Source of the DNA: Escherichia coli
Lineage (GTDB): Bacteria; Pseudomonadota; Gammaproteobacteria; Enterobacterales; Enterobacteriaceae
Direction: 5' to 3' (one strand)
Length of the DNA stretch: 64,000 nt
NCBI RefSeq assembly: GCF_003334335.1
Contig: NZ_QOWQ01000002.1
Part shown: piece after piece, positions 62,162 through 63,385 of the stretch
How positions within the stretch are numbered: the stretch's first letter is position 1
How the letters are laid out: the number at the start of each line of letters is the position of its first letter
Notes under the pieces: model-generated
Told to the model about the DNA's origin: nothing
Database searches by the model: none
What the model saw: only the letters and a program-made list of their open reading frames with translations
Program-made: the position numbers and the translations under genes

Positions 62162-62296
62162 TCATCCACGGCAGTGGCACCACACTTCAACCATTCGCTT
62201 CACAACTTCACGACAGTAGAAGCCGTCAACATCTCGCGTCAGGTCATAGCGATTGCCGTAACGCTGGTGGACCCATCGTTCAAATGCTTTATTCAT
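62162..62296 (-). CDS. Hypothetical small prophage protein (44 aa, Cys-containing)
   Basis: Hand translation MNKAFERWVHQRYGNRYDLTRDVDGFYCREVVKRMVEVWCHCRG; fills the gap between flanking same-strand genes; below ORF-track cutoff. Confidence 0.3.
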   Translation of the reverse strand: MNKAFERWVHQRYGNRYDLTRDVDGFYCREVVKRMVEVWCHCRG

Positions 62297-62299
62297 TCT

Positions 62300-62578
62300 T
62301 TACTTCCTTTTTATGGCTCGTAATTTTTTCAGGTGCTTTTCCTGCTCAGTGTCCGCGAGAATTTTGCGGTACTCCTGGTGGTCAATATGTTCGAACAGGC
62401 AGTTTAACTCACCAATGCGTACCCGCCCGGATCGTCCGTCCATCCGTCGAAAGAACACTGAGTGCTCAGTGATGCGAGTAATCACCACGGGGTATCCAGC
62501 TCTGTCCGTGTATATCTGACCGCGTTGAATCAAAGCGAACATGTGGTTATCCCCATCGACAAATCGAGAACACAACAA
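62300..62578 (-). CDS. Hypothetical prophage protein (possibly DUF4222-like)
   Basis: 92-aa ORF (start may be at internal Met 13); same-strand tight packing in prophage early region; family recalled only loosely. Confidence 0.45.
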   Translation of the reverse strand: MLCSRFVDGDNHMFALIQRGQIYTDRAGYPVVITRITEHSVFFRRMDGRSGRVRIGELNCLFEHIDHQEYRKILADTEQEKHLKKLRAIKRK

Positions 62579-62626
62579 ACGCTGCTGCGAATACCACCCC
62601 CAGAGTTACGATTGCATCAGGCCAGC

Positions 62627-63385
62627 TCATTGATTCACCTCCTGCCTGTCGTCCGGCATTCGCTCACTACAGCTTATCCAACCATCCGGAGTTACCGGAG
62701 AGTTGCCCGATAGTGCATTCTGCTCCAGTGATGCTTTTACAAACCACGCTGCCTGAACTATAACGCCATGAATCCAGCGCAAATCAGCATCGCGATCTTT
62801 CTTTTTCATCTTTTCGCCACTTAAGGCCTTGCTTATGTGGCTGCGTACCAGGTCTTCATGTAATTCCTTCGCCTCCTCAATGGTGAAACCACCAGGCAGA
62901 AGAGCCGGAGTTACCGGAGAGCTGGTTGACGCTTCCGGGATTTCCCGAAAATTATTGGTTGACGAATTCTTGCTTTCCCGAAAGTTTCCGGACTGAAGCA
63001 TGTCGGTGCGGCAGGCGTTCCATATTTCGGCAGCAATATCGCGCTCGCTATCGGTTAATTTGTACGTGGAAACATAGCCAGAGAGCATTTCTACGTTTTC
63101 CGGAGTTGCTTCTTCCGGCACTACCGGCGCTGGCGGGGCGGCAAATAGATATCCGCCAAAGTCAGGAAGCTCTCCAATGGCCTGTACGAACTTTTGTTTG
63201 CCTACGTCAACTCCTAATGGGTAATGAGCTATAATCTTTGCCACCGGCTCTGCTTCCAGCGATACCAGTGCAATTCGTGCCAGTTCTTCCGCTTCTTCTG
63301 CTGGCAGTACAACGTTGCTACCCGGTCCGTATGTTTCGCGCCACTGCTTGATTGTCAGCAGTCGCCCTTTGGTAATAGTGATCAT
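62627..63385 (-). CDS. Hypothetical prophage protein (252 aa)
   Basis: Start overlaps stop of upstream gene (translational coupling); internal SPVTP repeats; C-terminus DGWISCSERMPDD resembles the start of DUF551-type phage proteins. Confidence 0.55.
   Translation of the reverse strand: MITITKGRLLTIKQWRETYGPGSNVVLPAEEAEELARIALVSLEAEPVAKIIAHYPLGVDVGKQKFVQAIGELPDFGGYLFAAPPAPVVPEEATPENVEMLSGYVSTYKLTDSERDIAAEIWNACRTDMLQSGNFRESKNSSTNNFREIPEASTSSPVTPALLPGGFTIEEAKELHEDLVRSHISKALSGEKMKKKDRDADLRWIHGVIVQAAWFVKASLEQNALSGNSPVTPDGWISCSERMPDDRQEVNQ

Follow-up and report, generated by a model that had tools for sequence, protein, structure and literature searches.

We analysed a block of small genes (positions 62162-63385) close to the end of a 64,000-nucleotide (nt) stretch of Escherichia coli DNA (from contig NZ_QOWQ01000002.1; the whole stretch is referred to below as the 64-kb window). 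The block is likely to represent the int-proximal accessory genes of a lambdoid prophage residing in mlrA. In this explanation the largest of the genes, which encodes a protein of 252 amino acids (aa), has lost its DUF551 domain through an in-frame deletion, and short linkers have served as joints in the assembly of the mosaic genes to which it belongs.

Every item listed in the initial annotation of this DNA, which had been made from the sequence without database searches, can already be found in public records, where identical sequences carry hypothetical or DUF labels. The three open reading frames (ORFs) that it named were all found on the minus strand: 252 aa at 62627-63385, 92 aa (from a TTG start) at 62300-62578 and 44 aa at 62162-62296. 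A further ORF of 27 aa had been overlooked, and fills the 84-nt “gap” between the 252-aa gene and its neighbour, which encodes a DUF4222 protein. Five minus-strand genes, which either overlap by 4 nt or stand 3-18 nt apart, make up the tightly packed block and lead into xis and int. The products include the 252-aa protein, whose modules are joined by flexible linkers, a 27-aa putative membrane peptide, an 80-aa protein of the DUF4222/RgdR family and a conserved protein of 44 aa.

In-frame loss of the DUF551 core

The 252-aa gene (62627-63385, minus strand; phrog_60, the “DUF551-containing” family) encodes a mosaic protein whose DUF551 core has been deleted. Its product is identical to XSB41271 of the deposited phage PhiR5_1 (L001, 2098-2856) and falls into a 90%-identity cluster (P0003) with 401 members. 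It had been suspected that the gene might be a truncated form of a longer phage gene, ending with the start of a DUF551-type domain before a stop codon, and both observations were correct. Pfam aligns residues 235-250 with positions 1-16 of the 68-position DUF551 model (PF04448; independent E-value, i-E, 3.1e-4), and a complete match across the model, which describes a folded beta domain ending ...HWMPLPEPP, was not obtained. In a search of a large protein collection, the first ~250 residues were 97-99% identical to those of clusters P0004, P0005, P0009 and P0018, whose members of 302-313 aa keep a complete PF04448 domain. The 252-aa protein is derived from the DUF551 family, which includes YfdS of CPS-53, the “Ea22 V2” variant of Shiga toxin (Stx) phages and MazZ/DUF550 fusions, and it is no longer a domain-bearing member. 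With the full-length proteins it shares the linker, the first 16 of the 68 model positions and >97% identity over the first 250 residues, but the folded domain is absent.

The deletion was mapped against an undeleted relative, the 305-aa protein P0004, whose gene is found on a metagenome scaffold (L023) in the company of DUF4222, the 44-aa gene, a 428-aa integrase and mlrA, as in the window. In the blastn comparison, positions 63470-62649 of the window align to L023 1-822 at 99.76% identity and positions 62658-61800 align to L023 972-1778, the two alignments overlapping by 10 nt in the window (62649-62658). The scaffold contains CCGGACGATAAACAG (...SERIPDDKQ...) and, 159 nt downstream, CCGGACGACAGGCAG (...LPDDRQEVNQ, followed by the stop codon), and the window keeps one hybrid copy, CCGGACGACAGGCAG, from 62649 onward. 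The breakpoint is located within an 8-nt exact (12/15) direct repeat, CCGGACGA, a single hybrid copy of which forms the deletion junction at 62649-62656 (minus strand). Comparison of the gene lengths (918 nt in L023, 759 nt in the window) shows that 159 base pairs (bp), equal to 53 codons, have been removed in frame. The 53 residues contain all four beta-strands predicted for DUF551 in the AlphaFold2 (AF2) model of P0004.

Left untouched by the deletion are the last five codons of the gene and, for the 27-aa ORF, both its Shine-Dalgarno sequence and its ATGA overlap; the gene stops at the same ...QEVNQ as its intact relatives. In E. coli isolate AHB12 (L011), an intact DUF551 gene ending ...PEPPQEVNQ is followed by downstream sequence of the window type. 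The event probably took place by slipped-strand or short-homology recombination. The truncated protein would have lost whatever DUF551 did. The preserved Shine-Dalgarno sequence and stop-start overlap would still feed ribosomes to the 27-aa ORF and beyond, and the truncated allele may have survived because an in-frame deletion leaves the expression of the downstream genes undisturbed.

The accessory region of a lambdoid prophage in mlrA

Gene order and sequence comparison identify the last 3.5 kb of the window as the left end of a lambdoid prophage. The host gene yehW (58968-59699) flanks the prophage, and the mlrA (yehV) reading frame (59847-60494) lies between it and the integrase gene. A 21-bp attachment (att) core, representing attL, occurs at 60511-60531 within the 5' part of mlrA, which by this comparison is the site of prophage insertion; the core is identical to the “direct repeat due to prophage insertion” of YYZ-2008. 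The remaining mlrA frame begins inside the gene (215 aa from a TTG codon in the list of ORFs), and the RefSeq annotation of the mlrA remnant in strain 2012EL-2448 has 228 aa. The next genes, both on the minus strand, encode a tyrosine integrase of 428 aa (60569-61855) and an excisionase of 84 aa (xis, 61889-62143). The xis label originally attached to this downstream flank agrees with a match to phrog_539 (E 1.6e-37) and with the excisionases of related records.

Positions 61800-64000 of the window are 100% identical to PhiR5_1 (PV340545), in which the shared genes are followed by more accessory genes and then by exo, bet, gam and kil. The gene order in PhiR5_1 and in related Stx phages is int, xis, the 44-aa gene, DUF4222, the DUF551 gene, accessory genes and exo/bet/gam, and the gene content of the region between xis and the recombination genes differs among the related phages compared. 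The same arrangement was found at ≥99.4% identity in about 47-49 of 5,426 complete E. coli genomes, including O104:H4 and O55:H7 strains. In the most likely explanation, the block forms the part closest to int of the “ea” (exo-xis) region, the leftward early accessory region of this lambdoid prophage in mlrA. No NCBIfam family was found for any ORF of the block, and an Rfam scan of it yielded a single sub-threshold match to a small nucleolar RNA and no known RNA.

The counterpart in lambda is the exo-xis region with ea8.5, ea22, orf61, orf63, orf60a and orf73 (PMC10834534). The two have in common the position between xis and exo, the orientation and the small, packed and, in our block, apparently non-essential genes; the neighbours in PhiR5_1 also include orf61/orf60a-type genes together with exo, bet and gam. 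None of the genes in the block, however, is a sequence homologue of the lambda genes; comparison of the 252-aa protein with lambda Ea22 gave an E-value of 6.5, and that of the 44-aa protein with lambdap35 one of 1.8. Membership of the 252-aa protein in the Ead/Ea22 family (PF13935) was also considered and rejected, on account of this BLASTP result and of the lack of a Pfam match to that family. Judging from these comparisons, the “Ea22” label carried by the protein in the PhiR5_1 record looks like a transfer error; a true Ead/Ea22-like gene sits further upstream, beyond position 63899.

The exo-xis genes of lambda are early and non-essential (PMC10834534). By analogy, the genes of the block would be expressed with the early-left operon upon infection or prophage induction. 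They may likewise be non-essential and modulate host physiology, as is suggested by these lambda genes and by the regulator RgdR, which controls LEE1 (part of the LEE, the enterocyte effacement locus) and motility (PMC3378721). Their dispensability for growth is also suggested because an identical allele occurs in the deposited complete genome of phage PhiR5_1.

Several points weigh against this explanation of the block. Membership of an operon and the timing of expression are deduced from gene order and from lambda, and no promoter or terminator signal inside the block exceeds the chance level. The functions of the products (DUF551, this DUF4222 subfamily, the 44-aa protein and the 27-aa peptide) are putative and drawn from analogy. 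As regards the deletion, the undeleted relative, P0004/L023, is represented by one metagenome scaffold and has an unusual C-terminus, ...LPDDRQEVNQ. The truncated gene might instead have arisen from a P0005-like allele (MPDDGQ...), through a deletion between GCAG microhomologies and then one substitution, P0004 being a secondary recombinant; we consider this history about half as likely as that involving the direct repeat. The exact 5' parent of the junction was not found among the RefSeq genomes (AR_0011 has MPNDAQ, not MPDDRQ). The in-frame, short-homology loss of the DUF551 core stands under either history. Moreover, the carriers of the truncated allele are 99.4-100% identical, a divergence too small for the ratio of non-synonymous to synonymous substitution rates (dN/dS) to be informative, and a related copy with the same junction, in E. 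coli STEC435 (L012, 1648-2028), is flagged as a pseudogene by RefSeq/PGAP. The STEC435 copy follows a different upstream sequence that is truncated N-terminally, and the region appears to be decaying in some lineages.

Among the competing explanations, the one that survives best is that the domain-less allele is a selected functional variant, active in oligomerisation, in partner binding or as a dominant-negative form opposing the DUF551-bearing paralogues of co-resident prophages. Its distribution lends it some credit: at least seven different N-terminal mosaics among the 120 closest clusters share this truncated tail, one cluster with this tail (P0029) occurs on 170 contigs, the junction region is present essentially at full length in about 49 complete E. 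coli genomes, and the complete genome of PhiR5_1 carries the allele with its reading frame and downstream coupling intact. Linkage of the tail to DUF4222-xis-int(mlrA), with upstream modules swapped at the linker, accounts for this spread just as well, however. The divergence among the carriers is also insufficient to measure selection, PGAP considers one copy a pseudogene, and what is retained consists of helical hairpins of a generic kind and disordered linkers, for which fold searches found no specific structural match. We regard selection of the variant as possible though rather unlikely, and the 252-aa product as most likely a tolerated remnant.

It is considerably less probable that the block is a cargo island for anti-phage defence or anti-defence at the int-proximal end of the prophage. 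Its location between xis and the recombination genes, where gene content varies among related phages, would suit such an island, as would the high variability of DUF551 cores and the presence of toxin-antitoxin loci near the equivalent position (hok/sok in 933W and pPE4, and a toxin/antitoxin pair in ArgO145). PADLOC nevertheless matched none of the four proteins, nor the intact parent, no enzymatic domain is present, and RgdR, the only characterised relative, is a regulator of host genes (PMC3378721).

The SPVTP linker and the proposed exchange of DUF551 modules

The initial annotation drew attention to a duplicated nucleotide string coinciding with duplicated SPVTP motifs in the 252-aa protein. 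The string, GGAGTTACCGGAGAG, does occur exactly twice in the 64-kb window; its coordinates had been given one base off and are 62688-62702 and 62907-62921. No duplicate was expected by chance (100 shuffles). The full exact repeat is 17 nt long, CCGGAGTTACCGGAGAG, with a spacing of 219 nt (73 codons), and in both copies it encodes SPVTP in frame. The first copy in the direction of the gene (62905-62921, minus strand; residues 156-160) heads the middle helical-hairpin module, and the second (62686-62702, minus strand; residues 229-233) precedes the DUF551 stub within a 59-nt block at 62649-62707. The 17-mer is the coding sequence of an SPVTP linker that precedes two different modules and at which homology among members of the family begins and ends.

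The modular nature of the protein is apparent from several lines of evidence, and the initial description of it as possibly “fused” was apt. PHROG matches lie on separate segments, and in a search of 1.84 billion representatives the best-hit stretches start or stop at about residues 50, 95, 132, 160 and 222-226. The AF2 model of P0004 has helical hairpins, low-confidence linkers and, as a confident four-stranded unit, DUF551 (residues 250-295, pLDDT 90-96). The middle module, predicted to form a helical hairpin from this model and from stand-alone matches, covers approximately residues 154-226 (62708-62926, minus strand), with helices at 169-188 and 195-226 (pLDDT about 75). Both this module (154-222) and the DUF551 module (226-305) of P0004 occur alone in other proteins. 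No solved relative of a full-length DUF551 protein was found, either by sequence search or with Foldseek. In P0033 a non-DUF551 module stands behind the linker. In the 395-aa protein P0001 the middle module is duplicated in tandem together with the start of DUF551 (...NYPVTPDSWISCS-VPEASTSS-LPEASTSSPVTPALLPGG...), an arrangement that fits unequal exchange between repeated module-boundary sequences within the DUF551 gene family.

A 321-bp query spanning the junction (62480-62800) found about 5,400 matching places in 2,646 of the 5,426 genomes. Most of the matches listed are restricted to the 59-nt block 62649-62707 (...NSPVTPDGWISCSERMP), mostly with 93-100% identity, and across the E. coli genomes its homology breaks at about 62699-62723. 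The block sits after unrelated N-terminal parts (Ea22-like, dATP/dGTP pyrophosphohydrolase, and genes on plasmids of ~90-110 kb) and, among the matches listed, precedes unrelated cores. The flanks and cores were compared using the 3' ends of the DUF551 genes in L002, L003, L005, L011, L014, L019, L023 and L024. Pairwise comparison of six DUF551 core classes gave identities of 92-100% for the 5' flank (48 nt) and of 91-100% for the 3' flank (33 nt; WMPLPEPPQEV). The cores themselves are only 51-63% identical under forced global alignment, which we take to mean that they are effectively unalignable. At least 12 core classes were counted behind a single N-terminal architecture among the 120 closest clusters. 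The 3' flank also supplies the Shine-Dalgarno sequence of the 27-aa ORF.

Because of this pattern of breakpoints, we infer that co-resident prophages would exchange modules by homologous recombination at in-frame joints, namely the linker and the conserved 3' flank of DUF551. The cassette-like character of DUF551 suggests frequent exchange and perhaps diversifying selection. The mosaicism of lambdoid phages involves homologous exchange at short conserved joints, and the present case resembles such boundaries in that short conserved nucleotide stretches bracket unrelated sequences and breakpoints of homology cluster there. It differs from the usual situation in the placing of the joints within a reading frame, at inter-domain linkers, so that domains are swapped rather than genes.

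The possibility that the 17-mer is a cis-acting nucleic-acid element (a protein-binding site or an RNA motif), and not a coding linker, seems very remote to us. Two exact copies where none was expected, and the near-identity of the nucleotides, synonymous positions included, among otherwise unrelated alleles, might be read in this way. Yet both copies are in frame and encode SPVTP at module boundaries with low AF2 confidence, all other occurrences in the loci examined are inside coding regions (the 11 that precede DUF551 read SPVTP in frame), and the repeat has neither an Rfam match nor an inverted-repeat partner. The identity at the nucleotide level can be accounted for by homogenisation through recombination.

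The small genes downstream and their possible role

The start codon of the 27-aa hydrophobic ORF (MSWPDAIVTLGVVFAAAFVVFSICRWG; 62547-62630, minus strand) overlaps the TGA stop codon of the 252-aa gene as ATGA. A perfect Shine-Dalgarno sequence, AGGAGGTGA (62635-62643, minus strand), precedes this start by 7 nt and is embedded in the last codons (QEV) of the 252-aa gene; the stop codon of the ORF lies 4 nt before the ATG of DUF4222. Counterparts were found in YYZ-2008, BP-4795, Stx1_499, JLK-2012, 933W, ArgO145, the lytic Vequintavirinae phage Av-05 and an Actinobacillus phage. In eight loci the 27 codons from the aligned ATG are preserved together with start and stop, the YYZ-type alleles having an extra in-frame ATG upstream. 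Each counterpart starts at, or overlaps, the stop codon of the preceding gene, whichever gene that is, and has a Shine-Dalgarno-like motif, found at the matching place in 933W, ArgO145, Av-05 and pPE4. Values of dN/dS over informative pairs range from 0.07 to 0.74, with dS up to about 1.9. A gene of 84 nt probably falls below the length cut-offs of common gene callers. None of the RefSeq and phage records examined annotates a counterpart, the ORF matches no family of PHROG or NCBIfam, and a few GenBank submissions carry it as a “hypothetical protein”. At least 400 of the 5,426 complete E. coli genomes contain its DNA, with no coding sequence of its own listed under the match.

Hydropathy suggests that the peptide has one membrane span. 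It is absent from the small-gene supplements of a ribosome-profiling study of strain Sakai (PMC5597208), whose lysogen growth conditions may not express the peptide. The idea of a type I toxin of the Hok kind was considered and found no support: the ORF has no family match, Rfam shows no antisense RNA in the region, and the ORF appears to be translationally coupled within an operon and not to form a toxin locus of its own. A hok/sok-type toxin locus follows within a few hundred bases downstream of the 27-aa ORF in 933W (L019) and pPE4 (L022), and of the DUF551 gene preceding its position in L024-L026, and in ArgO145 a toxin-antitoxin pair follows on the opposite strand.

The 44-aa ORF (62162-62296, minus strand; three cysteines, net basic) starts 3 nt after the DUF4222 stop codon and has an AGGAAG Shine-Dalgarno sequence. 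The initial annotation had allowed that it might lack conservation, and this proved not to be so. It matches phrog_3871 over its full length (E 3.1e-31, positions 1-44 of 48) and is present at full length in 44 phage records from Escherichia, Salmonella (including Fels-1), Klebsiella and Citrobacter, as well as in one labelled Elizabethkingia; the exact sequence occurs on at least 1,000 contigs. Nei-Gojobori dN/dS values are 0.04-0.3 in most pairs, dS being saturated to the farthest homologues, and Cys40 and Cys42, not Cys28, are invariant in all nine sequences compared. On these sequence comparisons the ORF is a real gene under purifying selection. It adjoins xis in YYZ-2008, BP-4795, JLK-2012, phiP27, Fels-1 and Stx1_499, and in Klebsiella P18-100 it is located beside an unlabelled small ORF and an integrase-sized gene. 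This adjacency is not universal, as the gene lies near structural genes in Citrobacter K1M and Salmonella CF-SP1.

Upstream of the block lies a 171-aa gene (63382-63897, minus strand; 182 aa when read from a TTG start), whose stop codon overlaps the ATG of the 252-aa gene as ATGA. It matches phrog_9263 and phrog_631, both of unknown function, and gave no Pfam, significant PDB sequence or PADLOC match. The label “nuclease-like” (of the PD-(D/E)XK kind), previously applied to this flank, could not be confirmed: the only named match is a weak one to phrog_5429, “DNA repair protein” (E 0.005). A D...ExK-like motif (EQPDAMGF...LIEAKCS) can be seen by eye. In strain 2012EL-2448, RefSeq annotates this region as two parts, an ORF of 110 aa and a frameshifted pseudogene.

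The ORF initially described as 92 aa is an over-extension of the DUF4222 gene, which begins at the ATG at 62542 and encodes 80 aa (62300-62542, minus strand). The Pfam and PHROG alignments begin at this codon and public records give the gene as 243 nt. Its N-terminus, MFxLIQRGQ, is found in six of the eight homologues examined, as distant as that of a Klebsiella phage; the exceptions are phiP27 (MFALINQGQ) and AU6Stx1 (VFVLIQRGQ, from a GTG start). The protein has a full-length match to PF13973 (i-E 1.5e-13, model positions 2-53 of 53) and to phrog_285 (E 1.8e-33), and the same gene follows intact DUF551 genes in YYZ-2008, BP-4795, JLK-2012, AHB12 and L023. The initial suggestion that a frameshift might have split one longer DUF551 gene into the 252-aa and 92-aa ORFs, prompted by a protein that ends just past the start of its DUF551 match with another ORF within 50 nt, can be dismissed almost entirely, as the second ORF is a complete, independent gene also found behind intact DUF551 genes, and the first shares the ...QEVNQ stop of its intact relatives and is shorter than the gene of L023 by exactly 159 nt, a multiple of three.

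The statement that none of the products has an assignable function was too strong, since DUF4222 is the family of RgdR (ECs1581), a characterised regulator of enterohaemorrhagic E. coli and the sole member to have been studied. RgdR activates LEE1 and type III secretion and represses motility, and its DNA binding is weak and non-specific (PMC3378721, PMC10877973). Both proteins are small, basic and prophage-encoded (PMC10877973), and they align over the barrel region (RGQIYTDRAGYPVVITRITEHSVFFRR against RGDIYRDQYGGTVMIKGVEERRVTYHR), which is followed by a basic C-terminal tail. Overall identity is only 20%, rising to 41% over 27 residues of the barrel region. The RGD tripeptide of RgdR, reported to be important for activation of type III secretion, is replaced in the 80-aa protein by RGQ, which is the norm in the lambdoid subfamily. 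The setting is different as well: the 80-aa gene is close to a lambdoid xis, whereas RgdR is encoded in a P4-like remnant (prophage Sp7/OI-51 of E. coli O157:H7 Sakai). Several carrier strains, such as those of O104:H4, are generally described as being without LEE.

The AF2 model of the 80-aa protein (32 sequences, pLDDT 85) has a small five-stranded barrel of the Tudor/SH3 type and a long basic helix; a sequence search of solved structures with this protein returned no match. The barrel resembles Tudor-like domains that interact with RNA polymerase (the C-terminal domain of UvrD/PcrA, the N-terminal domain of CarD/CdnL and the KOW domain of NusG/Spt5), in fold only, with sequence identities of 8-11%. 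From this model a speculative proposal can be drawn, which we offer tentatively and regard as having less than an even chance of being right by some distance. DUF4222/RgdR proteins may be prophage-encoded, Tudor-like RNA-polymerase-binding factors, with a barrel like those of CarD and the UvrD C-terminal domain plus a basic helix, that would retune host transcription and not act as DNA-binding regulators. The same operon would also code for a conserved, coupled 27-aa membrane peptide, and DUF551 might be a swappable specificity cassette, represented in the window by a “null” allele.

The links reported for DUF551 proteins concern yfdS, a mutant of which is sensitive to H2O2 and which is redundant with yfdT in multicopy suppression of hda-185 (PMC4776307).

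To conclude, the block is a typical mosaic accessory region that has been annotated publicly without functions, and the value of its analysis is mainly corrective: the 92-aa ORF has been shortened to 80 aa by a revised start, the PhiR5_1 record carries an “Ea22” label that is not supported, and the idea of a frameshift has given way to a mapped in-frame deletion. It also provides leads for phage biologists. One is a conserved 27-codon gene for a putative membrane peptide in at least 400 complete E. coli genomes. Another is the apparent exchange of DUF551 domains as cassettes between conserved in-frame joints, which hints at diversifying interactions. A third is the predicted Tudor-like fold of the RgdR family, resembling RNA-polymerase-binding domains. 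No defined mechanism for RgdR was found in the papers of 2011 and 2024; binding to RNA polymerase, if true, would account for the pleiotropic effects of this regulator despite its weak, non-specific binding of DNA.

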